DNA of 64,000 nucleotides from a virus (taxonomy: Duplodnaviria; Heunggongvirae; Uroviricota; Caudoviricetes): the IMG/VR virus record IMGVR_UViG_3300024333_000003. One strand, written 5' to 3'. A program made the translations under genes and the position numbers. This document shows positions 1,631-45,926 of the stretch, piece after piece. Positions within the stretch are counted from its first letter, which is position 1; each line of letters starts with the position of its first letter. The notes under the pieces were generated by a model. The model saw nothing but the letters and a program-made list of their open reading frames with translations. It was not told where the DNA came from and ran no database searches.

Positions 1631-3984
1631 ACAGCTACGGCCGGGTTTGTAGCTTTAAAAATATTTAATATCATGTTTTGTCGTTCTCGTATAAAAGGTC
1701 TAGGAGAATCCATGTCAACTTGCCCTACGAAGTAAGGTTTTCCTGCGGAGTCACATAGTGATCTAGCGGTTAGTTTATCTACTGCATTTGATAATCCAGA
1801 CATTAATTCTTTTAACGTAGCTAATCGTCGATATGTCAAATCATCTGTGAACTTTTTTAGGGTCGCCGTATCTTTTATAACATTGTATTTTTCTTGTAAT
1901 TTTGCGGCGCATTTACTTGTAGAAAGTGGATCTATATCTTCGCCCCTAGCGTTTAATTGTAAATTATTAACACAATAATCATAAACTGAACTATCTGAGC
2001 GTCCAGTCAAATACACGTATAACCTTCCACCAACTTCTTTAACATTAAATTCAGATAATGTCGGTGGCAATATGTCTTTATATGGATCAAGGAAATCGGC
2101 GTAACTTTCTGTCGGTAGAGATGTATCAACACAAGATACGTGTGATAAATTTATATTTTGTACTGCTTCTCCTTGCGCACTGATATTTATAATATTTGTA
2201 GTAATTACACCAGTGAGTGGACCAAAGTCTTTTAACAATAATAACGATTGTGCACCACACACTCGATATGGCGAAAAAGTAACACGCAAAGCAGCGGTTC
2301 TGCCTATACGACGCTTCTCTACGTAAATAGTTTCAGCAAGTTGCATTTTATAATTCATTAATGCTTCAGAACCATTACCCATATTCATGCGATCAAATAA
2401 TTTTTTATCTGTATCTATCTTTTCGAAATTTTTATCAGAAGAAATTGCTGCAGGAGATTCAACTTCGGTAGATAACGAATCTTTTACCGCATTCAATAGG
2501 AATGCTTGTTCTAAAGCGCTATCATCTTTTTCCACCAATGACACGACACCACGCATTGCCTCTTCATTGGTGTATTTTAATATATCAATAACATCTTTAT
2601 TTAATACGGCATTATCATTAGATATAGTTTTATTTTGTGACAAAGTTTTAATTTGCTCATTTTCAGTGCTCGCTAATCCAATAGTTTTCTGGTTTTTAAA
2701 AGATTTTATATATTTGTCAAATGTATCCACAACCCAACGTTCGGATTCTTCAGATTTCACGGCGCCTTCTCGCAACGCTTTTCTTGAAGACGCAGTTAAC
2801 TTTGAAAGTTTATTTATTACATCACTGACCAGTATTTTTGCTGGCACAATAATAGCCAACATAGCATTTATAATGATGTTGCCGCTTTCGTCTTTGGTTG
2901 GAATTGTATTGGAAGTATAAATCAATCTAGTTGGTTCATTTCTCCAAGAACGATTCATTTGTATTGTTTCGACGTCATCATCGAAAAATACATTATTGGA
3001 TATGGGCGCCAACAGATTACATTCTGGTGCAACAATAACTTTAGACAAAGTTAATTCAGCAATGTCGCTTAAAGCATCGATTGTTAGAACCGGCGCCGCA
3101 AATTCCTGAAAAGTATATTTAAACGGCTCTAAAATTTTTCGGATAGCTGATGAAACAGGCATTGATCCTGAACTTGCGATACCACGTATACGTTCTTTTA
3201 GATATGCTAGCACGGCAGTACTCTTTGCAAGATTTTCCATAGTGCCAGACCCGATATAATTTATCATTGAATCAAATAATAAACTTTGCATCAAGCCATT
3301 TAAAAACGGGCCATACTTAAACAAAAAGTGATTTATAACTAGTGCAATTCTTGCACGCAATTTTGTACCGCGGTGAAATTTAAAATCCGGCCCCTCCGGC
3401 GGATTATTTTTCCAATATGCTTTTAAACCTGCCATTAATTTATTACGACTATTTGTCGAGCCTAAAACTTGTTCATAATCTTTTATAGTTTTGTCGTCTT
3501 TGGTTGTATCCATAAAGTTCACAAGACTAAGTAATAGTGAAGGAAACTTACTATAATATATCCCCTTTCCATCTGCCCCAGTATTAGTAAAATAATTTAT
3601 ACCGAGCATAACGGATTCAGCTGCCGTTGGGATAGTAGCATCTATCGGTACTATCGGATTTGTATCCCAATTACCTGTAAATCCAGTAAATGTTAACTGC
3701 ACTTCGGATGAGGTCGCTGTACGATTCAGCCCGTTATCAGTGTATTCACCAAAAAATATAACCACTTCTTCATATACAGGTATTCCATCTTTATAACTTT
3801 TAATTTCTTCCAAGGTTATAACACAAATAGTCTTCGGTAAAATATTAAAGATATTTTTTATAGGAACCACATTTATGATAGCGGTTGGTGGTGTTCCGAT
3901 TTGTTCGATTATATGTATATTTGAAAAATCAATTTCTACATTTTCAAGATATACATGACATTTTATTTTTGATGCTGATAGCAT
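1612..3984 (-). CDS. large virion structural protein (790 aa; baseplate/tail component candidate)
   Basis: 790-aa ORF immediately downstream of the tape measure gene on the minus strand, the usual place for distal tail or baseplate proteins. Confidence 0.5.
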   Translation of the reverse strand: MLSASKIKCHVYLENVEIDFSNIHIIEQIGTPPTAIINVVPIKNIFNILPKTICVITLEEIKSYKDGIPVYEEVVIFFGEYTDNGLNRTATSSEVQLTFTGFTGNWDTNPIVPIDATIPTAAESVMLGINYFTNTGADGKGIYYSKFPSLLLSLVNFMDTTKDDKTIKDYEQVLGSTNSRNKLMAGLKAYWKNNPPEGPDFKFHRGTKLRARIALVINHFLFKYGPFLNGLMQSLLFDSMINYIGSGTMENLAKSTAVLAYLKERIRGIASSGSMPVSSAIRKILEPFKYTFQEFAAPVLTIDALSDIAELTLSKVIVAPECNLLAPISNNVFFDDDVETIQMNRSWRNEPTRLIYTSNTIPTKDESGNIIINAMLAIIVPAKILVSDVINKLSKLTASSRKALREGAVKSEESERWVVDTFDKYIKSFKNQKTIGLASTENEQIKTLSQNKTISNDNAVLNKDVIDILKYTNEEAMRGVVSLVEKDDSALEQAFLLNAVKDSLSTEVESPAAISSDKNFEKIDTDKKLFDRMNMGNGSEALMNYKMQLAETIYVEKRRIGRTAALRVTFSPYRVCGAQSLLLLKDFGPLTGVITTNIINISAQGEAVQNINLSHVSCVDTSLPTESYADFLDPYKDILPPTLSEFNVKEVGGRLYVYLTGRSDSSVYDYCVNNLQLNARGEDIDPLSTSKCAAKLQEKYNVIKDTATLKKFTDDLTYRRLATLKELMSGLSNAVDKLTARSLCDSAGKPYFVGQVDMDSPRPFIRERQNMILNIFKATNPAVAVWKGLE

Positions 3985-7601: not shown

Positions 7602-8221
7602 TTGATGAATGTAAATATAAGTGGTGAATTAACCATAACCGATTACACAGAAGACGAGGCACACCAGATAAAAGCGAGCCTTGTGACCGAAAATCCAACC
7701 TGGGTAACGGCTATGAGTATGAACAAAAGTCTGTGGGGGATCGAACCAAAGCTTCGATTTTACACAGAAGCAAACAATACAATAACCGCCCCCGTTGGTT
7801 TCCTTTCGTCATTGAAGATAATAAATCCTAATTTACAGATTGATGATAATCGCTATTATAGCAAAACTCCTATACAAATAGAATTTACCGGGGAGTTACG
7901 AGATTATCAAAAAACTGCAGTAGATGTATTAAGTAATACAACAAACGGGGTTTTATGCTCTATCACGGCTTCAGGAAAAACCGTTATAGCCTGTGCGTTA
8001 CTTGCAAAACTAAAACAACCTACATTGATACTGGTAGATACTATAGAACTTGCGCATCAATTTATTGCGCGATTAAAACAGTTCACCTCAGTAAAGAATA
8101 TAGGAAAAATCGGCGCGGGCGAAAGAAAAATAAAACCAATAACTGTAGGGCTATTACAAAGCGTAAAAAAAATTGATCAATCAGAATTAAATAAATTCGG
8201 AATGATAATATGCGATGAGGT
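7602..8221 (+). CDS. SF2 DEAD/DEAH-box helicase, exon 1 (ends inside motif II DEV|H)
   Basis: Walker A-like TASGKTVIACAL and motif II ...IICDEV. The ORF as tracked runs on into intron sequence (…LTRSTYYV*). Confidence 0.6.
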
Positions 8222-9227
8222 ATTGACAAGGTCCACATATTACGTATAATAACTTATGAAAAATAAAATTAAGATATTATATAAAAGTGGGTTGTCGGCT
8301 TATCAAATAATGCAAAAACTACACATTGCTTCAAAAGAATTAGTATACAATGTTATACATGAAGAAAAATTAACTAGGGACTACGAAGAATGCAGACACC
8401 CTGGTTTGAATAGTCGTTATTTTAAAAATATAGATACAGAAGAAAAAGCGTATATACTTGGATTAATATTCGCCGACGGTTGTGTTAGAAAAAATCGCCC
8501 AGGCATGACCTTAGCACTACATCCGAATGATCTGTACATGTTGCGACGGATTAAAGATATTTTAGGAACCAAGGCAAAGATTCAAATATCAAAACAACCT
8601 TTAGCGGTGTATTATATAAATAATAAACAAATGAGATTAGACGTCATAGCTAAAGGGTGCTTGCCACAAAAATCTCTACGAGGTGGAAAACCCAAAAATA
8701 TTCCTATAAAATACACACATCATTTTATTAGGGGTATATTTGATGGTGATGGTTCGATATATATAAGAAAAGTTCCTCATCTTAGATACTGTTTTGACAT
8801 ATCTGGCAATATCGATGTTGTTTCTTGGTGCCATAAAAGATTAAAACTTTATACTAAGATAACAAAACACCGCTCAATATTTAGATTAGAGACGACTAAT
8901 TTAATTGAAGTTGTTAGAATATTTAATTATTTATATAAAGACAGTACAATTTTTCTAAAGAGAAAAAAAGCATTATTTGAAAAAGCTTGTGCCGCACTTG
9001 ATCGTAAGATCAAAGGTGTAAATCAAGGAAAAACGGTAAAAACCCGTGATGGGCAATACCGTGCTAAACGCAAGGATAGCAAACAGGCCCTGCGCAGTGT
9101 AGAGCATAGGAATTGAATAAATATAATATTCCCAAGAGTCCTTGACATCCTTATAGGATGAAAATATATGCCGAGCTACAAAGTAATTTGTAGAAATTGA
9201 GATAACAACCTCAATGATAACAAAATG
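8222..9227 (+). mobile_element. putative self-splicing (group I-type) intron carrying a LAGLIDADG homing endonuclease
   Basis: Joining gt(8220-8221)+a(9228) restores codon GTA, giving ...ICDEV|HIVPAKTYAEVISKIPAKYKYGLSATPER (motifs II and III). 5' exon ends in U, intron ends in G (9227). An in-frame TGA sits immediately before exon 2. Confidence 0.55.
8256..9116 (+). CDS. LAGLIDADG homing endonuclease (intron-encoded)
   Basis: Two LAGLIDADG motifs: ILGLIFADGCV and IRGIFDGDGSI. Confidence 0.8.
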   Translation: MKNKIKILYKSGLSAYQIMQKLHIASKELVYNVIHEEKLTRDYEECRHPGLNSRYFKNIDTEEKAYILGLIFADGCVRKNRPGMTLALHPNDLYMLRRIKDILGTKAKIQISKQPLAVYYINNKQMRLDVIAKGCLPQKSLRGGKPKNIPIKYTHHFIRGIFDGDGSIYIRKVPHLRYCFDISGNIDVVSWCHKRLKLYTKITKHRSIFRLETTNLIEVVRIFNYLYKDSTIFLKRKKALFEKACAALDRKIKGVNQGKTVKTRDGQYRAKRKDSKQALRSVEHRN

Positions 9228-9924
9228 ACACATCGTACCAGCAAAAACATACGCTGAAGTTATTTCAAAGATACCAGCAAAATATAAATATGGATTATCA
9301 GCCACACCAGAACGAGCTGATGGTCTTACTAAAGTAATATTCTGGTTAACCGGCCCATTGGTACATCAGGTTCCAGATGCCGCTGTTGCAGATAGAATTG
9401 TAAAACCTGTATATGAGTATATAAAAACTTCATATACGTATCCATTATTTGATACGTCAGAATATGGTATCATGATAACGGATATGGGTACTAATGACAT
9501 AAGAAATAAATTAATAGTTGACACCGTAAATAAATATAAAACACAACAATGTGTTCTATTGTGTCATAGACAAGAACATGCTCAGAGACTGGGTGCGTTA
9601 CTACCGGACTCCGTAGTTTTATTATCCAGTGTAAAGAAAAAAGATCGCGCCGCTATTATGCAGCAACTTGAAAGCGGTAAAAAGCGTATTGTTGTTACTA
9701 CCTGGCAATTGTTTCATAAAGGCATCGATCTGAAGGAGCTTGAGATCTTATTTATATGCGCACCAACACGAAGTAAAGTGTGGTTAAAACAAAGCGCCGG
9801 CAGACTAATGCGAGTTTCAAATAAGATAAAAAAGAATCCAGTCATTATTGATTTTGCGGATGTAAATATAGATTTACTAAAATTCCAATGGTATGCAAGA
9901 AAGAGAGTATTTACACAACTATGA
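9228..9924 (+). CDS. SF2 helicase, exon 2 (motif III LSATPER plus helicase C-terminal domain)
   Basis: Frame open from 9229 with no stops. Contains GLSATPER and C-terminal helicase motifs (VVTTWQLFHKGIDL, QSAGRLMR). Confidence 0.6.
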
Positions 9925-10116: not shown

Positions 10117-10560
10117 ATGGTTGTGTCGATAAATAAAGCAGATAACGAGGCACAATTGCGGATATTACGAACACCAGCTACTCGTGGTGAAGTGGGCCCA
10201 GCGGCCTTGTTGGCAGTAGATTTAATAGACACCGCTAAGAACTATGAAATATGTATGGGGCTGGCAAGTAATCAAATCTGGACAAAAGAAAATGAGCCCA
10301 TACCGCATGTATTTGTAGTAAATATTTCTGATAATTGGAAAGTATTTATAAATGCAACGGCAAAAAGATCGGGTAAATACTTCTCGTTTGAAGAAGGATG
10401 TATGTCAAAACCCGGGTATAAGAAAAGATGTATTCGTCGAGAAATCGTTACCGTATCATATATGGATGAGGAAGGTACTCCACACGTTGATAAATTTGTC
10501 GGTATGCCGGCAATTATTATACAACATGAGTTGGATCATATGACCGGAAAATTAATTTAA
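10117..10560 (+). CDS. def: peptide deformylase
   Basis: GLASNQIW (GxGxAAxQ-like), EGCMS (EGCLS) and QHELDH (HExxH) motifs. Confidence 0.8.
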   Translation: MVVSINKADNEAQLRILRTPATRGEVGPAALLAVDLIDTAKNYEICMGLASNQIWTKENEPIPHVFVVNISDNWKVFINATAKRSGKYFSFEEGCMSKPGYKKRCIRREIVTVSYMDEEGTPHVDKFVGMPAIIIQHELDHMTGKLI

Positions 10561-11780: not shown

Positions 11781-12848
11781 ATGGATAACAACTTAATCTT
11801 TGCTATTGAAAAACTAGGGGCCACGATCTACTTATTTGGTGAATGTGTTTGGGCAACAGCATTAAAAATAAAAGTGCAGTATTATAAGTTAGCTATAATT
11901 GGAGTAACCCGCGAACAGGTAATTCCATTGTTAGATAACTATACATTGCACAGAACAAAACCAACACTGCAGATAAGTGACGGTGACACAACATATGAAT
12001 TGTATTTTTTGAATAGTATAGATAGTGTACCATTTGATCCTATATCGATAAACAATGCTATTCTCAGTCTGGATGGCAAGGTATTTCGCGCCGATGATTT
12101 AAAGAATAAACTCATTCGTGCCAATACCTCCACATTTCTCGATTACCCCGAAGAGTTATTACGGATATGTCGCATTGCTGCGCAAACCTCTTTTGCCGTA
12201 GATGTCCCAACGTGGGTAACAATGTACGAACATTCACGATTGATCAAGAATGTAGTAAAGAGCAACCCAGCATATATTGGAAAACAATTGCAACAAATAA
12301 TTATGTCAAAAAATCCGGGGCATGGTTTTCGTTTGATGTTAGAGACCAACGTACTACAATATATTTTTCCAGAGTTAGCACGTTGTAACAATATTCGTCA
12401 AACACGTCGGGGCGAAGGCATCAATGTATTTGAACACATATTGTTGGCTATAAATGCGGCAGCACTTGAAGAAGAAATCAGATGGACTATGTTATTTCAT
12501 GATATGGCAAAACCAACTACTATGGATATTACTTCCGATGGTAAAATGCATTTTTTCAAACACGAATTTGTAGGCGCCGAGCTCGCTGTAACATACATGA
12601 CAAAATATAAATTACCGCCGTCTCTAATACAAACTGTAAAGATATTAATAGAGAATCATATGTTTGACGCGGACCCGAAGTTAACCGTAAAGGGCGTGCG
12701 TCGTCTAATTAAAAGAGTCGGCAAAGAAAACATATATCAACTTATAAAAGTGCGAGAAGCGGATAGACGTGGTACCATGGTTCCACCGTCAAATGATAAG
12801 ATAGAATTGTTAAAAACCAAAATCGAAAAAGAATTATCAAATGTTTAA
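11781..12848 (+). CDS. CCA-adding-enzyme-like protein with degenerate nucleotidyltransferase head and HD domain
   Basis: FLDYPEELLRICRIAAQTSF resembles the EDPLR(I/M)LRA(I/A)RF motif. HD motif MLFHDMAKP. The GGxVRD...DxD head motif is replaced by GECVWATAL. Confidence 0.5.
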   Translation: MDNNLIFAIEKLGATIYLFGECVWATALKIKVQYYKLAIIGVTREQVIPLLDNYTLHRTKPTLQISDGDTTYELYFLNSIDSVPFDPISINNAILSLDGKVFRADDLKNKLIRANTSTFLDYPEELLRICRIAAQTSFAVDVPTWVTMYEHSRLIKNVVKSNPAYIGKQLQQIIMSKNPGHGFRLMLETNVLQYIFPELARCNNIRQTRRGEGINVFEHILLAINAAALEEEIRWTMLFHDMAKPTTMDITSDGKMHFFKHEFVGAELAVTYMTKYKLPPSLIQTVKILIENHMFDADPKLTVKGVRRLIKRVGKENIYQLIKVREADRRGTMVPPSNDKIELLKTKIEKELSNV

Positions 12849-14003: not shown

Positions 14004-14753
14004 ATGAAAATATTACCTGTGGGTTCCTCGAGTTCCGGGAACTGCACATTAATTTATAACGATAATACACGCATCTTAATCGATTGCGGTATATCGGCAA
14101 AAAGGGTTTTTGAGAAAACAGGGCACAAGGAATTCAGCGCCCTGTTTATTTCTCACGAACATAGCGATCATATTGTTGGCGCAGGCCCTGTTGGGCGTAA
14201 AACCAAAGTTCCTATATATATTCATGAAGCTGTTTTCAAAGCAAAAGAAACAGATTTAAATGATTGTGAAATCAAATATATAAATGAGACATCTGTACTG
14301 CAAATTAAATCTTTGATAGTTAAACCTTTTTCAACAAAACACGACGCAAAGTTTGCACTGGGTTTTATAATTGAAGAGCCCGCTACAAATACGTTTCTCT
14401 GCTATTTAACCGATACTGGCAGCATCAGCAAAACTATGCGAGAACGTACAAAACATTGTAACGCCTTTTTCATCGAATGCGATTATGACGATGAATTATT
14501 GGCAACTTACGACGGATACGACCAATTATTAAAGGATCGTATTAGCTCCAACTTTGGTCACCTTAGTACATCACAGGCTTTAGAATTTTTATCTGAGTTT
14601 GATTTGACTAAGACAAAGGGAATAGTTATTGGTCATATAAGTCCAAGGACTAATTCGCCCGAAAAAGTTAAGGAGCATTTTATGAAGAAATTTGCAACAC
14701 TTGAAAATAAATTTCATATTGCTCCATTTGATGCCCCCTTAGAATTGACATGA
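14004..14753 (+). CDS. metallo-beta-lactamase-fold hydrolase
   Basis: HEHSDH (HxHxDH) motif. Confidence 0.6.
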   Translation: MKILPVGSSSSGNCTLIYNDNTRILIDCGISAKRVFEKTGHKEFSALFISHEHSDHIVGAGPVGRKTKVPIYIHEAVFKAKETDLNDCEIKYINETSVLQIKSLIVKPFSTKHDAKFALGFIIEEPATNTFLCYLTDTGSISKTMRERTKHCNAFFIECDYDDELLATYDGYDQLLKDRISSNFGHLSTSQALEFLSEFDLTKTKGIVIGHISPRTNSPEKVKEHFMKKFATLENKFHIAPFDAPLELT

Positions 14754-16280: not shown

Positions 16281-17391
16281 AAAGAAAATATACTGGTCCA
16301 ATTCGTTTTTAAAATAAATATGTTTATCTTGAAATTACAGATAAAAACACGAATATTGGATAAAATAGCGGCCTATGTAGAGAAATCTTATAGGAAAATC
16401 GGGAATAACGGAGAAACTCCTTAACCAGTAAGGACAATTCCGTAGCGGAAACGCTCGAACGACTGACAACCGACTTCAAGTATGAAGATGATACAGTCTG
16501 CTCTATAGATATATATAAAACTATAGCTAACACATGGATTTATTTGACATAGTCCTTGAACTTATGTTTGGTCCAAATGATACCAGAATAGCAAAAGTTA
16601 TAAAAGATCGTACTAACACATTACCAAAAGAGTTTGAATACACATATCAAGAGTTAACGAAGTACTTGGATATGAAAGAACTAGAGCGTGAACCTGTTGC
16701 ACTCCGTGCGGTACAACGCTTGAATCAAGTTTCTAACCGTACCGTTGCTATAACACTAGATGGTCAAACCGTGATGACCGGCGGTATAACAGTAGAAACT
16801 TTCACAAAACTTCGTGACATTATTCCACATTTTGAGGAACGGGAATTAAAAGATAAATTACAGGAGGACTATTATGTTGGTTCTCTACTCGATCTGAAAG
16901 AAGACGAGGCAAAGCAGTTCCTTACTGATCTACAAGCAAAACTAGGTATTAATAATTAATGAGCTATAACTTACGCGATGTTAAGGGATCGAGTTTTGAT
17001 CCTATTCCAGAAGGCCGTTATAACCTAACGGTGGATAAAGCAGAGTTAACAACTGCAAAAGATAGTGGTAATCCTATGATCAAAGCGACTTTGAAGATTC
17101 TCGATGGAGACTTTAAAGGTCGTTTAGTATGGGATAATTTTGTATTAACAGATAAATCCCTGTGGAAGTTAAAGGGAATTCTAGAAGCAATTGGTAGTAA
17201 TATTGCTGAATCTGTAAATGCTACTGAACAAGATATAGCCAATGCATTACAAGGTGCAAAGGTGAATGCTTGGTTAGAAATTCGTATTGGTCCAAACGAT
17301 CAAACATCAAATACAGTAAAAAACTACGCCAAAATAACCGAAGAAACGGTTGCAAGCAAAAAGAACAGTCTTTTAGCTTAATAGCTTTATT

Positions 17392-17413
17392 GGCCTCGGT
17401 AAATATCGAGGCC
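17392..17413 (+). terminator. hairpin terminator candidate
   Basis: GGCCTCG-gtaaatat-CGAGGCC immediately after the ORF ending at 17381. Confidence 0.35.
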
Positions 17414-17423
17414 TTCATGTATT

Positions 17424-18146
17424 ATGGATAAATTCATACAAAGAGCTTTAACACGTTCACAAATAAATGAGATACTACAATTTTTGTCGTATCATTTAGG
17501 GTATACGCCGCCGCAAAAGTTTACTATAATTTTTGCTAAGACTCCAGAACAATTCGCAAAGTTGCATGGAACAGAGCCGGGCCAAACGACGGTAGAGGAA
17601 ATAAATTCAGCTGTACCTACGTTACCGGCAATATTTGATCATGGAACGAATACGGCGGTATTTCAAGGATTTTCTTACGTTCAAGGTCTTGCGGTACCGC
17701 ATTTCATAATACCTATGGCCACAATCTTACATGAATGTATACACTTTTACCAGTATTCCGCCGGAAATTTTGGGTCGTGGCAAACAATGTACGAAGGAAC
17801 CAGCGAAATATTGGCTTGCTTCTTTGCCGATGATTACCAGTTCGATTACAAGAACGAAGTCATATATAGCTTTAACTTGGCAATGATCATCAACGATAAT
17901 AATTTCTGGGAAGCAATGAACTGGATAAAACGCTACACTGTTCATAGTGATAAAAATGGATTCGTAGCACGTAGTATTTTACAGACACCCACATTTGCAA
18001 AATTTAGACCGACTAATTTGATGCGGTGGTTAGATGCTAATACGTTACATAAGATTAAAAACGAAGAGATACGAAATTTATTTACAAAGTACAATCTTTC
18101 GTATATTAAAAAACAATTACATAAGAATCGTCAACTAATTTCATGA
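17424..18146 (+). CDS. HExxH zinc metallopeptidase-like protein
   Basis: LHECIHF (HExxH). Confidence 0.4.
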   Translation: MDKFIQRALTRSQINEILQFLSYHLGYTPPQKFTIIFAKTPEQFAKLHGTEPGQTTVEEINSAVPTLPAIFDHGTNTAVFQGFSYVQGLAVPHFIIPMATILHECIHFYQYSAGNFGSWQTMYEGTSEILACFFADDYQFDYKNEVIYSFNLAMIINDNNFWEAMNWIKRYTVHSDKNGFVARSILQTPTFAKFRPTNLMRWLDANTLHKIKNEEIRNLFTKYNLSYIKKQLHKNRQLIS

Positions 18147-19850: not shown

Positions 19851-20315
19851 ATGCAGAAAAACTCAAACAAGAAACAAAAAGTATCTTCGACGATAACAGT
19901 CCCGGTAAAAGTGCTATCGGATAAAGCTATATTACCAACTAAAACACATGATACAGACGCATGCTACGATTTGTATTCTGTAAAGCAAATCAGACTAGCT
20001 GCGAATGGCTTTGATGCCGTTCAGACTGGGATCGCGTTCAATATTCCAAAAGGATATTTTGGCAAAATATATGAACGCAGTGGAGTATCGTTACAACGTC
20101 CTATAACAGTGAAAGCTGGGGTTATAGATGCTGGATACACCGGTGAAGTAAAGGTGATCGTACACAATCACGGTGATTATCCAGAAATGATCGATGCTGG
20201 TACAAAATTGGCGCAAATTGCGTTTCATGCGGTACCTGACATCGAATTAGTTAAGGTAGATGAATTTAAAATCACCGCACGTGGTGATAAAGGATTTGGT
20301 AGCAGCGATCAATGA
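19851..20315 (+). CDS. dut: dUTPase
   Basis: ACYDLYS, GVIDAGYTGEVKVIVHN and C-terminal RGDKGFGSS dUTPase motifs. Confidence 0.75.
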   Translation: MQKNSNKKQKVSSTITVPVKVLSDKAILPTKTHDTDACYDLYSVKQIRLAANGFDAVQTGIAFNIPKGYFGKIYERSGVSLQRPITVKAGVIDAGYTGEVKVIVHNHGDYPEMIDAGTKLAQIAFHAVPDIELVKVDEFKITARGDKGFGSSDQ

Positions 20316-22435
20316 ATTATTTAGAGGAATTATCCAATTTTATTTTTACGAGCAAATATGCTCGTTACAATGAAAAAGCTGGTCGTAGAGAGTCTTGGGA
20401 AGAGGCTATAAAACGACTTGAATCCATGCACAAAAAACACTATTCATTTCTATCTGATGAAGATAAAAAAGAAATCGAATGGGCTTTTGACCTTGTGCGT
20501 GTAAAACGTGTAGTACCGTCAATGAGATCAATACAATTTGGTGGCAAAGCGATTGAAGCACATCAATCACGTATTTTCAATTGTGCTTGTCGCCATGTTG
20601 ATTCTCTTCGTGCGTTTTCGGAGATATTTTATTTGTTATTATGTGGTAATGGCGTAGGAATTGGTTTATCAAATATGTTTCTTAGCCGATTACCTAATTT
20701 AGTAACTGAAAAAGACAAAACAGGCACAATCATTACTTACGCAGTAGAAGATACCATCGAAGGATGGGCCGACAGTTTAGAAGCGTTGTTGAACTGTTAT
20801 TTTAAAAATACTGCATACACAGGTAGAAAGATTGTGTTTGATTACAGTAAAATACGTTCTGCCGGCACTCCGTTAAAAACGGGTGGTGGCCGTGCTCCCG
20901 GATATAGAGGTCTAAAGAATGCTCATAAAAAAATAAAACTTTTATTAGACCATATTATCGAGGATTTGCATCAATTAAATTTAAAATCTATCAATGCATA
21001 TGATATATTAATGCATGTAGCCGACGCAGTAATAAGTGGAGGTATTCGTCGAAGTGCTACGTTAGTATTATTCGATAAAAACGATATTGATATGATAAAT
21101 GCAAAAGCATTCTTTACTGTACATAAAAAAGGTCGTTTTGAGCTAAACGCGAAAACAAATAAACACGAAGGTTATGTAATACTAGAAGATCCTGCATACC
21201 CAGGCAAACAAAAAATCGAGGTAGAACTAGATGACTGGGCTTTATCTGATTTGCAACAGAATCAACGTATAAGTTGGTTTGATGTTTATAAACATAGAGC
21301 AAGAAGTAATAATAGTGTTTTGTTACTTCGAGACCAGTTAACTTCAGAAGAGTTTAAAGAAATATTCGAACGAACAAAAAATTTCGGTGAACCCGGGTTT
21401 ATATTTGGTAACCATCCATGGATGAGTACTAATCCATGTGCAGAGATCGGCTTTATTCCGGTAACTGATGATGGTGTTTGTGGCGTACAATTTTGTAATT
21501 TAACTTCCATTAATGGTGCAGAAATACATACACTAGATGATTATTTAACTTGTGTAAAAGCTGCCACAATCATTGGGACACTACAGGCCGGCTACACATA
21601 TTTTCCTTATTTATCACCGGCCGCAAAAAAACTAACTGAAGATGAAGCATTGCTGGGTGTATCAATGACCGGTATGATGGATAATCCTCAAATATTATTG
21701 AATCCTGCGTATCAAAAACAAGCTGCGCAATTAGCAGTTGCAACAAATAAAGTGTGGGCAGAGAAACTTTATATAAAACAAGCTGCCCGCGTGACGTGTA
21801 TAAAACCAGAAGGAACCGCAAGTTTAGTATTGGGAAGTGCGTCTGGTATACATGCACATCATGCAAAAAAATATTTTCGACGGGTGCAAGTAAATAAACT
21901 TGATCCGGTATATATGCACTTCAAAATCGCAAATCCGCACATGAGCGAAGAGTCGGTTTGGAGCGCAAATAAAACAGACGATGTAATCACCTTTCCTATA
22001 GAGGTTCCGGAAGGGGCGATAGTAAAAAAAGATCTAGATGCCATAGCGCATTTAGACCTCATTAAATCAACACAACAAAACTGGGTATTACCAGGAACCA
22101 GTGTTGCTAATAGAAAAAATGTTACGCATAACGTATCATGTACAGTCATAGTAAAAGCTGATGAATGGGACAAGGTGCGTGAGTATTTATTTAATAACAA
22201 AAATAATTTCGCCGCTGTAGCATTGTTGGCACAAACAGGTGATAAAGATTTCAAACAACCGCCACTTGAAGCTGTGATAACAGAGCAAGATAAACAATTG
22301 TGGGATACTATTATAACTTCGTTCAAATCTGTAAATTACAAGACACTAAAAGAAGAAGAGGATAGTACTACATTACAGCAAGAATTAGTATGCGCAGGCG
22401 GACAATGTGAATTACCAATTTTAAGTAACGGATGA
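20312..22435 (+). CDS. ribonucleotide reductase large subunit-like (NPCAE active-site loop; class II-like)
   Basis: 707 aa with STNPCAEIGF (NPCxE motif) and Cys-containing N-terminal region. Confidence 0.5.
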   Translation: MNYLEELSNFIFTSKYARYNEKAGRRESWEEAIKRLESMHKKHYSFLSDEDKKEIEWAFDLVRVKRVVPSMRSIQFGGKAIEAHQSRIFNCACRHVDSLRAFSEIFYLLLCGNGVGIGLSNMFLSRLPNLVTEKDKTGTIITYAVEDTIEGWADSLEALLNCYFKNTAYTGRKIVFDYSKIRSAGTPLKTGGGRAPGYRGLKNAHKKIKLLLDHIIEDLHQLNLKSINAYDILMHVADAVISGGIRRSATLVLFDKNDIDMINAKAFFTVHKKGRFELNAKTNKHEGYVILEDPAYPGKQKIEVELDDWALSDLQQNQRISWFDVYKHRARSNNSVLLLRDQLTSEEFKEIFERTKNFGEPGFIFGNHPWMSTNPCAEIGFIPVTDDGVCGVQFCNLTSINGAEIHTLDDYLTCVKAATIIGTLQAGYTYFPYLSPAAKKLTEDEALLGVSMTGMMDNPQILLNPAYQKQAAQLAVATNKVWAEKLYIKQAARVTCIKPEGTASLVLGSASGIHAHHAKKYFRRVQVNKLDPVYMHFKIANPHMSEESVWSANKTDDVITFPIEVPEGAIVKKDLDAIAHLDLIKSTQQNWVLPGTSVANRKNVTHNVSCTVIVKADEWDKVREYLFNNKNNFAAVALLAQTGDKDFKQPPLEAVITEQDKQLWDTIITSFKSVNYKTLKEEEDSTTLQQELVCAGGQCELPILSNG

Positions 22436-36637: not shown

Positions 36638-38035
36638 ATGAACTACGGGTTATACACAGATATGTATCAACTTGTTATGGCACAAGGATATTTCCAGATG
36701 AGCCGCCATAATGACCGAGCCACGTATGATTATTTTTATCGACGTAACCCATACGGCGGCGGTTATGCATTATTTGCCGGATTAAGTGAGTTGTTAGATA
36801 TCTTAAAGAATTGGAAATTTACCGAAGAAGATACAACGTATTTATTTCATCAAGGAATTTTTCACGCAGGCTTTTTGAGTTATTTACGTGACTTTCAATT
36901 CAAAGGCGATATCTATTCTGTGCGTGAGGGCGAAGTTGTTTTTCCAAATGAACCTATACTGCGAATTGAAGGTGGTTGGCTAGAGTGTCAATTATTAGAA
37001 ACTCTGTTGCTCAACATTATCAACTTCAGTACATTGATCGCAACTAAAGCAGCACGTATAAAACAAGTTGTAAACGAACGACCTATAATTGATATGGGAT
37101 TACGACGTGCACAGGGGTTGGGAGGTATTTTGGCGAGTAAAGCCGCTATTATTGGTGGTGCAACTTCAACTTCTAATGTTTATGCCGCAAAGAAATACGA
37201 TCTCTTAGCGGTAGGTACAATGGCTCATGCCTGGATACTTGGTTTTGAAAACGAGTTAACTGCATTTCGTGCGTTTGCTAAAGAATATCCGCACAACACA
37301 GTGTTGCTAGTTGATACTTATGATACATTAAAAAGTGGTGTGCCGAATGCAATAATCGTAGCTAAAGAACTTGAAGCCAACGGATGTAAATTACATGGTA
37401 TCCGATTAGATAGCGGCGACTTTGCGTACCTAAGCAAAAAAGCAAGAAATCTTCTTGATGAGGCCAATTTGTCTTATGTAAAAATAGTTGCATCTAATCA
37501 ATTAGATGAATATGTAATTCGTAGTCTAGAAGAACAGGACGCTCCTATTGATATTTATGGTGTAGGCACAAATTTAATTATCGGTGCTGGCGCTGGAGCT
37601 CATGATGGTGTATATAAACTATCATCGATTCAAGGACAGCCGAAAATGAAATTTTCAGATAATCCTGAAAAAGCTACATTACCCGGACCAAAAGATCTGT
37701 ATCGTTATTATAATAACGACGGCACTTTTTATGGCGACGGTATTACTTGCGCAGGAATGCCTCCACCGAAGAAGTTGTATGATCCTGTTTATCCAGATAG
37801 ATTATCAGATGTTGGAGATCTAAAAAACGAAGCGCTTTTAATAAAGTGCGTGGAAAATGGAAAGGTTGTAATAACTAATCCTATCGTACGTACATCAAGA
37901 CTTTATGCGGAAAGTCGTCTGCAGAGCTTAGGAAAAGAATTCACTAGATTTGAAAACCCACATATCTATAAAGTAGGTGTAAGTGATATATTACTTAAGC
38001 ATAAAACAGATATGATTGCCGCACTTAGAAAATAA
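36638..38035 (+). CDS. nicotinate/nicotinamide phosphoribosyltransferase (PncB/NadV family)
   Basis: 465 aa; N-terminus TDMYQLVMAQGYF and overall length match the NAPRTase/NAMPT family. Confidence 0.6.
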   Translation: MNYGLYTDMYQLVMAQGYFQMSRHNDRATYDYFYRRNPYGGGYALFAGLSELLDILKNWKFTEEDTTYLFHQGIFHAGFLSYLRDFQFKGDIYSVREGEVVFPNEPILRIEGGWLECQLLETLLLNIINFSTLIATKAARIKQVVNERPIIDMGLRRAQGLGGILASKAAIIGGATSTSNVYAAKKYDLLAVGTMAHAWILGFENELTAFRAFAKEYPHNTVLLVDTYDTLKSGVPNAIIVAKELEANGCKLHGIRLDSGDFAYLSKKARNLLDEANLSYVKIVASNQLDEYVIRSLEEQDAPIDIYGVGTNLIIGAGAGAHDGVYKLSSIQGQPKMKFSDNPEKATLPGPKDLYRYYNNDGTFYGDGITCAGMPPPKKLYDPVYPDRLSDVGDLKNEALLIKCVENGKVVITNPIVRTSRLYAESRLQSLGKEFTRFENPHIYKVGVSDILLKHKTDMIAALRK

Positions 38036-44711: not shown

Positions 44712-45926
44712 TTGTACCAAAAAAGCAAAACAGGAAAAATTAAAGTATTAGAATTCTGGACTGTAAAAGAAAAATTCTATACTCGTTGGGGGCAATTAAA
44801 CGGTAAACAGCAAGAAACTGTGAAGGTATGTGTGGGAATGAATATCGGTAAAGCTAATGAAACTACACCTGCAGAGCAGGCATTGGCAGAGATGGAAGCC
44901 AAGATCGTAATTAAGAAAAAAGAAGGTTACGATACAAAGATGCCTTCAGTTACCTCATCAATAGTGCAAACTGTTATTGATCTGGATAATATACCAGAAG
45001 CATTTTGTCCTAATAAACCTATATCTAAAACACCACAATCAATTATTGATGGTAAAAATACGTATGGACAAAGAAAATTCGATGGGCATTGCTTATTCTT
45101 GGTTAAAGGCAAAACTACCGAAAAAGTATTTTCACGTCGTATGGAAGATCGTACAGACGTATTAATACAGTTACCGCCTATAAAAAAATTATTGGCTATA
45201 CTACCAAGTGAAACGTTTTTATTAACCGAATTTATATATTATAACAACACAACAAAACGTGAATCGCCTAGACATGTAGCGCAGGTTGTTCGTAAAGATG
45301 ATGCTGCGGAGGCTATATCGCGTTATAACGAGTTATCAAAAGATGGACAATTCAACTGTATCCCCTTCGATGTCCTATTCTTCAAAGGAGATTTTGTCGG
45401 AAATAGAGAATATACTAAACGATTCGAATTACTCAAATCTATCAATATCAACGTGCCCCCCATATACACAGATTGGAAGGAGCTACTTCAATTTGCCGAA
45501 GAAGAAAATTGGGAGGGTTTTGTCCTTCGTGTGCCAGGTGAGAAATCATATATCTCTTATACAATGGATGGAGAAGCACATCGAGCGGGAAGTTATAAAT
45601 ACAAATTTCTCAAAACTGATGACTTTTTTGTCACAGAATGGCTTAAGGGAAAATCCGGAAAACACGCCAATTTTTATGCGAAGTTTGCTGTGGCACAATA
45701 CGACTCCAAAGGCACCATTATCGATCGTGGATATGTCGGCCCTGGTAAACTAACTCACGATGAACTAGCACAACTTACAAAGGATCTAAATTCTGGTAAA
45801 GTAAAAAAGAACTTTGTAATCGAAGCTGAATATCAGGATATTCAAGATTCTGGAAAATTACAGTTTGGAATAATTCAGCGACTACGACCAGATAAAATAC
45901 ACACAGAATGCGTGGTTGAAGAATGA
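44712..45926 (+). CDS. ATP-dependent nucleotidyltransferase ligase (DNA or RNA ligase)
   Basis: KFDGHC (motif I KxDG), EGFVLRV (motif IV), YKYKFLK (motif V). Confidence 0.6.
   Translation: MYQKSKTGKIKVLEFWTVKEKFYTRWGQLNGKQQETVKVCVGMNIGKANETTPAEQALAEMEAKIVIKKKEGYDTKMPSVTSSIVQTVIDLDNIPEAFCPNKPISKTPQSIIDGKNTYGQRKFDGHCLFLVKGKTTEKVFSRRMEDRTDVLIQLPPIKKLLAILPSETFLLTEFIYYNNTTKRESPRHVAQVVRKDDAAEAISRYNELSKDGQFNCIPFDVLFFKGDFVGNREYTKRFELLKSININVPPIYTDWKELLQFAEEENWEGFVLRVPGEKSYISYTMDGEAHRAGSYKYKFLKTDDFFVTEWLKGKSGKHANFYAKFAVAQYDSKGTIIDRGYVGPGKLTHDELAQLTKDLNSGKVKKNFVIEAEYQDIQDSGKLQFGIIQRLRPDKIHTECVVEE

Follow-up and report, generated by a model that had tools for sequence, protein, structure and literature searches.

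An SF2 helicase gene interrupted in its DEVH motif

The window analysed here, a stretch of 64,000 nucleotides (nt) from a virus of the Caudoviricetes (IMG/VR record IMGVR_UViG_3300024333_000003), contains on its + strand a superfamily 2 (SF2) helicase gene in two exons separated by a 1006-nt element (8222-9227). This element is very probably a mobile group I intron of the phage IA type with a P7.1 helix, related to the orf142 introns of Staphylococcus phage Twort and inserted within the codons of the helicase DEVH motif. An open reading frame (ORF) inside it (8256-9116, +) encodes a LAGLIDADG homing endonuclease of 286 amino acids (aa). Exon 1 (7605-8221, +) encodes the N-terminal domain, motif I (GKT) and motif II as far as D-E-V, ending with ...ATA TGC GAT GAG GT at 8221 (IICDEV) and thus with two of the three bases of the Val codon. 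Exon 2 (9228-9924, +) supplies the third base as A9228 and continues with CAC ATC GTA CCA GCA, the translation HIVPAKTY...GLSATPER starting from the H of DEVH and leading through motif III (SAT) and a Helicase_C domain with QSAGRLMR to the stop codon at 9922-9924. Both exon ends had been proposed in a sequence-only reading of the window, and sequence and translation agree with them. The helicase start given there, at 7602, was corrected, as the orthologues begin with MNV and their alignment sets the start at the ATG at 7605, with an in-frame TTG (7602) immediately upstream.

Joining the two exons gives a 437-aa SF2 helicase with Pfam matches to ResIII (3.9e-26), DEAD and Helicase_C (7e-9), and only after splicing do the SF2 motifs stand in one polypeptide (GKT at residues 124-126, DEVH at 204-207, SAT at 230-232, and QSAGRLMR). 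A search of a large protein collection returned 246 helicase relatives, the closest being 61-71% identical, 438-442 aa long and uninterrupted. Alignment of the spliced product with nine orthologues was colinear with no indel at the junction, D204, E205 and H207 were invariant or nearly so, and both exons were free of stops and frameshifts and kept all invariant helicase residues. The correct gene product is one protein of 437 aa, and the predicted ligated junction reads GATGAGGT joined to ACACATCG (GAGGT/ACACAT, the slash marking the junction here and below). An uninterrupted allele was found in a contig syntenic with the window (L015), in which the same genes, including that for peptide deformylase, flank the helicase on both sides and the site reads GTT GAT GAA ACT CAT ATA GTG. 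In the comparison with intron-less alleles suggested in the sequence-only reading, L015 and approximately 20 IMG/VR loci lacked the intron, and no gap opened at the junction.

In the frame of exon 2, the codon directly before H207 is TGA (9226-9228), as had been noted earlier, and this frame has no ATG, GTG or TTG before 9358, a position past motif III (SAT).

Intron boundaries and internal guide sequence

The intron interrupts the Val codon of motif II after its second base, and its 1006 nt were delimited from the reading frame, the intron-less allele and the relatives at the same site. Since A8222 and A9228 are identical, the junction carries a one-base ambiguity, which was resolved by the group I rule requiring U before the intron and G at its end. 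The bordering bases are accordingly T8221 and G9227, in line with what had been read from the sequence before, and G9227 (the terminal or omega G, at the 3' splice site) has its counterpart in the same-site relatives. When the exon 1 frame is read into the intron it gives LTRSTYYV and then meets TAA TAA at 8247-8252 (+), 26 nt into the intron.

A guide sequence was sought near the intron 5' end (8222-8255) and none was found there. The internal guide sequence read from the window, UGU-GCCGCA (8988-8996, +), lies after the main part of the ORF and far from the 5' splice site, so that the ORF occupies the P1 loop. The homologous guide UGUGCCGU sits in the same endonuclease codons (K-A-C-A) in two IMG/VR phages with an intron at the same helicase site (L153 and L155). 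On the exon side, P1 consists of U8221-G8991 (wobble), G8220-C8992 and G8219-C8993, followed beyond a mismatch by G8217-C8995 and U8216-A8996; on the intron side, A8222 pairs with U8990 and U8223 with G8989. P10 is formed by ACA 9228-9230 with UGU 8988-8990, so that P1 and P10 use one guide. The A-G mismatch at position -4 is common to the same-site relatives with a readable guide (L153 and L155/L156), which suggests that it may be tolerated. Directly after the guide, the P2 hairpin (8998-9013, +; UUGAUC/GAUCAA with a GUAA loop) was seen in the sequence and in the minimum free energy (MFE) fold, and its position holds different hairpins in the relatives. Application of the same guide rule to an ORF-less member of the family in a terminase gene (L005; GAGGU with GCCUC) yielded an in-frame junction, which supports the assignment of guide and splice sites in the window.

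Structure and covariation of the ribozyme core

The ribozyme core (9021-9221, +) was defined from a covariance model, from covariation and from the MFE fold. Its helices are P3 (9023-9028/9140-9145), P4 (9033-9038/9057-9062), P5 (9043-9045/9051-9053), P6 (9063-9065/9096-9098), P6a (9069-9075/9088-9094), P7 (9102 and 9104-9108 with 9167-9172, A9103 being bulged), P7.1 (9109-9113/9128-9132), P8 (9146-9150/9156-9160), P9 (9176-9182/9187-9193, with a GUAA loop) and P9.1 (9196-9201/9210-9215), all on the + strand. The elements follow one another in the order guide, P2, P3, J3/4 (AAAA), P4, P5, P6/P6a, J6/7, P7, P7.1, P3', P8, J8/7, P7', P9, P9.1 and final G. The guanosine-binding site is G9104-C9171 beside the bulged A9103, and J8/7 reads AAAAUA.

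Covariation was assessed in a structure-blind MAFFT alignment of 36 family members. Across P3-P9.1, including the P3/P7 pseudoknot, 97.5% of cells were paired, compared with 33-41% in slid-partner controls and 70% in shuffles, and 46 of the 56 pairs showed changes on both sides; the observed values were reached by none of 500 shuffles. Specifically, both-sided changes were seen at all six pairs of P3 and at two positions of P7, where the pair 9102-9172, closing over the bulge, is GC in 18, AU in 13 and CG in five of the 36 sequences. Of the two peripheral helices that introns of subgroup IA2 have between P7 and P3', P7.1 is present and covaries at five out of five pairs, whereas no P7.2 is present in the window.

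A covariance model, R1, was then built from 35 family members with the window excluded, and matched the window at 9021-9221 with 164.8 bits (E 2.5e-44). No second copy of the family was found by R1 in the window, the next best match scoring 16 bits, and R1 gave no match to the intron-less helicase loci. The MFE fold of 8985-9227 (z-score -4.7) recovered P2, P3, P4/P5, P7.1, P8, P9 and P9.1. An Infernal scan had been proposed in the sequence-only reading; Rfam models were negative in the window (discussed below) and the family model R1 was positive. The central proposal of that reading, a group I intron with a homing endonuclease inside DEVH, was borne out by the covariation, by the R1 model made without the window and by a match of R1 to the Twort orf142 region.

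The 14-nt loop of P7.1, UGAAUAAAUAUAAU (9114-9127), is invariant in most family members, an invariance that is partly by construction, because the loop sequence served as a search pattern. Three variants found by BLAST (L009, L011 and L014) keep UGAA...AAUAUAA and have an extra P7.2-like hairpin inside the P7.1 loop. Two structural assignments were discarded in the course of the analysis. A GUUC/GAAC pairing between the segment preceding P8 and the segment following P7' was dropped, as it showed no covariation in L010 and the true partner is the upstream 5' strand of P3, and a first labelling of P6/P6a as P4/P5 was also abandoned.

The endonuclease gene and its overlap with the ribozyme

The ORF at 8256-9116, previously read as a double-LAGLIDADG endonuclease, is full length at 286 aa and contains two LAGLIDADG motifs, YILGLIFADGCV (LGLIFADG) and FIRGIFDGDGSI (RGIFDGDG), both with their catalytic Asp. 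The first domain matched Pfam LAGLIDADG_3 with 33.3 bits against a cut-off of 22.5 (5.9e-8), the second motif aligned to I-MsoI, and orthologous ORFs occur at the same site in other phages. The N-terminal region has a putative helix-turn-helix-like character as read from its sequence. In tblastn searches the best matches, with 27-34% identity over 65-86% of the query and with the motifs in common, were to intron-encoded LAGLIDADG (DOD) endonucleases from Staphylococcus Kayvirus and from Bacillus phages; the places matched in Staphylococcus phages are annotated as intron-encoded or DOD homing endonucleases, and all these enzymes are distant in sequence. The only true orthologues found are those of uncultivated phages, where they occupy the same helicase site. 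LAGLIDADG enzymes are less usual in phage introns (PMC3984707).

The C-terminal tail of the endonuclease, 38 aa long, is encoded by the ribozyme core. The ORF overlaps approximately 126 nt of RNA structure (the guide, P2, P3-P6 and the 5' strands of P7 and P7.1) and ends within the P7.1 loop with a stop codon at 9114-9116, which agrees with the earlier expectation that any core would have to overlap the ORF; the non-coding part of the intron amounts to 34 + 111 = 145 nt, also as estimated. A ribosome translating the ORF would unfold the core, and translation of the ORF and folding of the ribozyme on one RNA are therefore mutually exclusive. Where an ORF overlaps an intron core, its expression is known to be under tight control, and in phage introns in-frame stops past the 5' splice site prevent ribosomes from entering from the exon (PMC3984707).

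A perfect sigma-70 consensus, TTGACA-N16-TATAAT (8223-8250, +), falls within the first 29 nt of the intron as a putative intron-internal promoter. It matches at 12 of 12 positions and is the only perfect one on either strand of the window, against 0.11 expected. The putative -10 box stops 5 nt short of the endonuclease ATG, compared with 8 nt in three same-site relatives (L153, L154 and L155), which keep -35-like and -10-like hexamers at the same place, and no Shine-Dalgarno-like sequence was seen by eye upstream of the ATG. Two transcripts might conceivably resolve the clash between endonuclease translation and ribozyme folding, an idea we hold tentatively. Transcription from the internal promoter would give a leaderless or nearly leaderless endonuclease mRNA, unable to splice because the 5' splice site is absent from it. 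On the helicase pre-mRNA, ribosomes would halt at TAA TAA 8247-8252, and this stop together with the lack of a visible Shine-Dalgarno sequence would leave the core ribosome-free and able to fold. The arrangement suggests a separate leaderless endonuclease transcript as a working hypothesis and not as a finding.

Relatives at the same site and the wider intron family

When IMG/VR was scanned with the helicase alignment, 24 loci were found, of which four (L153-L156) were interrupted at the same site and approximately 20 were intron-less or otherwise changed. In L153-L156, whose helicases are 42-51% identical to the query, the helicase match covers residues 207-437 only, that is, from the H of DEVH, and R1 matches directly upstream of the residue 207 point with 137-186 bits. 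The junctions read GA(Y)GAGGT/A...G/ACATAT, and all four introns end ...G/ACA. The ORFs at this site are orthologous to the window endonuclease, including an N-terminal MKNxIxxLYxxGxSAYxIM, and differ in extent: the L155 endonuclease stops just after the guide, that of L154 reads on to the same ...SVEH stop region as in the window, and that of L153 is truncated at 196 aa. Such a spread of full and shortened enzymes is what the invasion-and-decay cycle of homing endonucleases would produce. The 5' end of the window intron is 11 nt shorter than in the same-site relatives. Among the intron-less loci, L140 has a near-identical target, TGTGATGAGGT/ACACAT (L140 sequence TGTGATGAGGTACACATATCGCC).

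A megablast of the region against phages gave a single match, 36 nt identical to crAss-like phage cr6_1, and this match was the lead to the intron family. In a more sensitive blastn, window 9009-9228 (the end of the endonuclease ORF and the 3' non-coding part) resembled sequences in many unrelated phages. The family signature TGAATAAATATAATNNNNNCAMGAG, its most conserved part, occurs once in the window (0.03 expected) and in at least 119 IMG/VR viral contigs. GenBank phage records with core matches include crAss-like, Staphylococcus, Oenococcus, Leptolyngbya and Yersinia phages, and family elements separate fragments of essential genes, those for the terminase large subunit, a DnaB-like helicase, polymerase/primase, DNA polymerase and the major capsid protein. 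In related public records the homologous places are unannotated, labelled 'hypothetical protein' or 'endonuclease', or given as two gene fragments.

Two other candidate interruptions of the helicase were rejected as introns. A split at approximately 3480-3500 of L137, taken as a possible second intron, was caused by a run of N marking a European Nucleotide Archive (ENA) scaffold gap, a caution for automated split-gene screens. A partial match in L152 (1103-3484; IMGVR_UViG_3300013138_000869) proved to be an intein: the orthologous helicase there is 793 aa long and contains an intein with its own LAGLIDADG motifs in Walker A (TG/C...HN/SGKT). The same helicase family has therefore been struck in motif I by an intein and in motif II by a group I intron.

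Comparison with known introns

The nearest characterized relatives of the window intron are two introns of Staphylococcus phage Twort. R1 matched the Twort genome at 17019-17227 (44.2 bits, E 1e-10) and at 17297-17536 (30.8 bits, E 6e-7), which we take to be the orf142 introns. These belong to subgroup IA2 and self-splice by experiment, and one of the ribozymes has been crystallised. Between Twort and the window, each of the helices P3, P4, P6, P8, P9 and P9.1 aligns with its counterpart, as does the 3' tail ...GUAAC, and both represent phage-borne IA-type introns in protein-coding genes. The Twort introns lack an ORF, in contrast to the window intron with its LAGLIDADG ORF placed in the P1 loop, and they interrupt another host gene. 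The Twort P7.1/P7.2 region could not be aligned with the window, which has a single P7.1 hairpin with the conserved 14-nt loop UGAAUAAAUAUAAU.

The td intron of phage T4, with its endonuclease I-TevI, is likewise a mobile phage group I intron, and it too interrupts the gene of an essential enzyme where critical residues are encoded. As in the window, an in-frame stop follows soon after the 5' splice site and endonuclease expression must be kept from disturbing folding (PMC3984707). I-TevI is, however, a GIY-YIG enzyme whose coding sequence lies in the P6a loop and so outside the core, whereas the window enzyme is of the LAGLIDADG type, encoded in the P1 loop and overlapping approximately 126 nt of structured RNA.

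Within the intron family, crAss-like phage cr6_1 (NC_055894; L001, approximately 2143-3163) shares 36 identical nt with window 9104-9139. Its LAGLIDADG ORF likewise occupies the P1 loop and extends across the guide, and its intron also interrupts an NTPase motif (Walker A, GSG/KSS). It differs from the window in residing in a DnaB-like helicase, of another superfamily and at another motif, in that the ORF stops in the P6 loop, and in that the endonuclease is without the N-terminal extension of the window enzyme. The cr6_1 intron is unannotated, its pieces being labelled 'hypothetical protein', 'endonuclease' and 'DNA helicase', and the helicase of cr118_1 (L007) appears to be split like that of cr6_1.

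Staphylococcus phage vB-SscS-F1 (MW589261; L005, 1887-2137) carries a member of the same family in the gene for the terminase large subunit, where the insertion follows the same octamer as in the window, GATGAGGT, among codons for Walker B A-D-E-V. In contrast to the window intron it is 251 nt long, has no endonuclease, pairs perfectly with its guide GCCUC and resides in an unrelated host gene. That two unrelated ATPases share the octamer could result from ectopic spread, or simply from a preference of the guide for ...GGU. The vB-SscS-F1 record annotates two separate terminase coding sequences.

Proposed splicing pathway and alternative explanations

The architecture needed for splicing is present in the window, and the chemistry would be that of the established group I mechanism. 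The helicase pre-mRNA would be transcribed through the intron, with TAA TAA just inside it keeping exon 1 ribosomes out of the core. Exon GGU (8219-8221) would pair with guide GCC (8991-8993) some 770 nt downstream, placing a U-G wobble at the splice site, and P3-P9.1 would fold with the guanosine-binding G-C pair next to the bulged A in P7. An external guanosine would attack after U8221, G9227 would then take the G site in P7, and P10 would position exon 2 for ligation, giving GAG GTA CAC (E-V-H) and the 437-aa helicase. The predicted target of the endonuclease is the conserved sequence coding for DEVH in helicase alleles that lack the intron, and repair of the cut from the intron-bearing copy would insert the intron (homing).

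Several observations count against a functional group I intron at this site. Splicing itself is a step that we infer. P1 is weak, with three exon pairs followed by the A-G mismatch at -4 (A8218-G8994), and its strands are separated by approximately 770 nt. The near-invariant P6 loop of the family, AUUrCGAAAGG, reads AUAGCAAACAGG in the window copy, and P6a contains one A-C mismatch. Pfam detects one of the two endonuclease domains, and the activity of the enzyme is a prediction. Moreover, Rfam returned no group I or group II match, whether the whole window was searched at the gathering threshold or 8100-9400 at E ≤ 10 and 8975-9240.

Taken alone, the Rfam result would argue against an intron, but it is overturned because the comparative analysis found the core, and for the window it is a false negative. 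The gathering score of Rfam RF00028 (Intron_gpI), 50 bits, is a curated detection threshold and not a structural definition. The ORF-less L005 intron scored 17.7 bits with the same model (E 0.019, sub-threshold), and this sub-threshold alignment gives the same assignment of P2, P3, P4-P6, P7, P3', P8, J8/7 and P9. A survey of phage introns reported that RF00028 matches are often weak or partial when an endonuclease loop splits the core, with which the failure in the window agrees (PMC11878797).

The departures from the family consensus could also be explained if the element were a decaying relic, in which ribozyme and/or endonuclease are dead and the helicase is a pseudogene or very poorly expressed. 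The short P1 exon pairing with its A-G mismatch, the altered P6 loop, the A-C mismatch in P6a and the 11 nt missing at the intron 5' end all point in this direction, and the L153 endonuclease, truncated at 196 aa, shows that degeneration occurs in the lineage. However, every core helix is intact and the R1 score of 164.8 bits falls within the 137-186 bits of the relatives. The P1 mismatch is ancestral and not a new lesion, being common to L153 and L155/L156. The endonuclease ORF has kept its full length and both motifs with the catalytic Asp, the exons are without stops or frameshifts and the invariant helicase residues are kept, so that we regard a relic as improbable.

A gene split by a free-standing endonuclease, its halves made as separate, associating polypeptides with no splicing, is less probable still. 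Split genes with an endonuclease between the halves do exist in T4-like phages, and exon 1 has its own stop codons (8247-8252). The second half, however, would have no in-frame start until 9358, past motif III, and is preceded by TGA directly before H207; the break splits one of the DEVH codons, the group I core is complete and ends in G exactly at the border of exon 2, and the same intron occupies the same site in four other phages. As for a group II intron, an intein or a translational bypass, nothing beyond the bare interruption favours them and the sequence already refutes them, which leaves them practically no credibility. For a group II intron, Rfam gave no match, the element starts with AUUGAC and not GUGYG and ends with AAAAUG, and it encodes no reverse transcriptase, the ORF being LAGLIDADG. 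An intein is contradicted by an insert that is out of frame, full of stops (TAA TAA 8247-8252) and splits a codon, and a bypass by the length of 1006 nt, far beyond any known case.

Although well supported, the group I intron in the DEVH codons is a selfish element of an ordinary kind, belonging to an intron family that is widespread in phages, and it adds one more case of such an element targeting the best-conserved codons of an NTPase. Should the endonuclease be active, its long recognition site around GATGAGGTACACAT would be a new one. It is worth noting that the helicase would be annotated as two fragments and a 'hypothetical' or 'endonuclease' gene, and that the family, with its at least 119 IMG/VR contigs, is missed at the Rfam gathering threshold; with a dedicated model, R1 for example, many split phage genes would come to light.

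Other genes in the window

In addition to the helicase, the window encodes a number of auxiliary proteins. These are a peptide deformylase (10117-10560), an HD/poly(A)-polymerase-like (CCA-adding-like) enzyme (11781-12848), a metallo-beta-lactamase-fold protein (14004-14753) whose counterpart in the syntenic contig L015 matches the Anti-Pycsar protein Apyc1, a class II ribonucleotide reductase-like protein (20312-22435), a nicotinate phosphoribosyltransferase (36638-38035) and an ATP-dependent DNA ligase (44712-45926). The window also contains 34 tRNA genes, all on the + strand between 23489 and 60995 (approximately 37 kb), an unusually large set for a phage segment. The relatives of the window phage are contigs of 99-215 kb, which come from metagenomes only.

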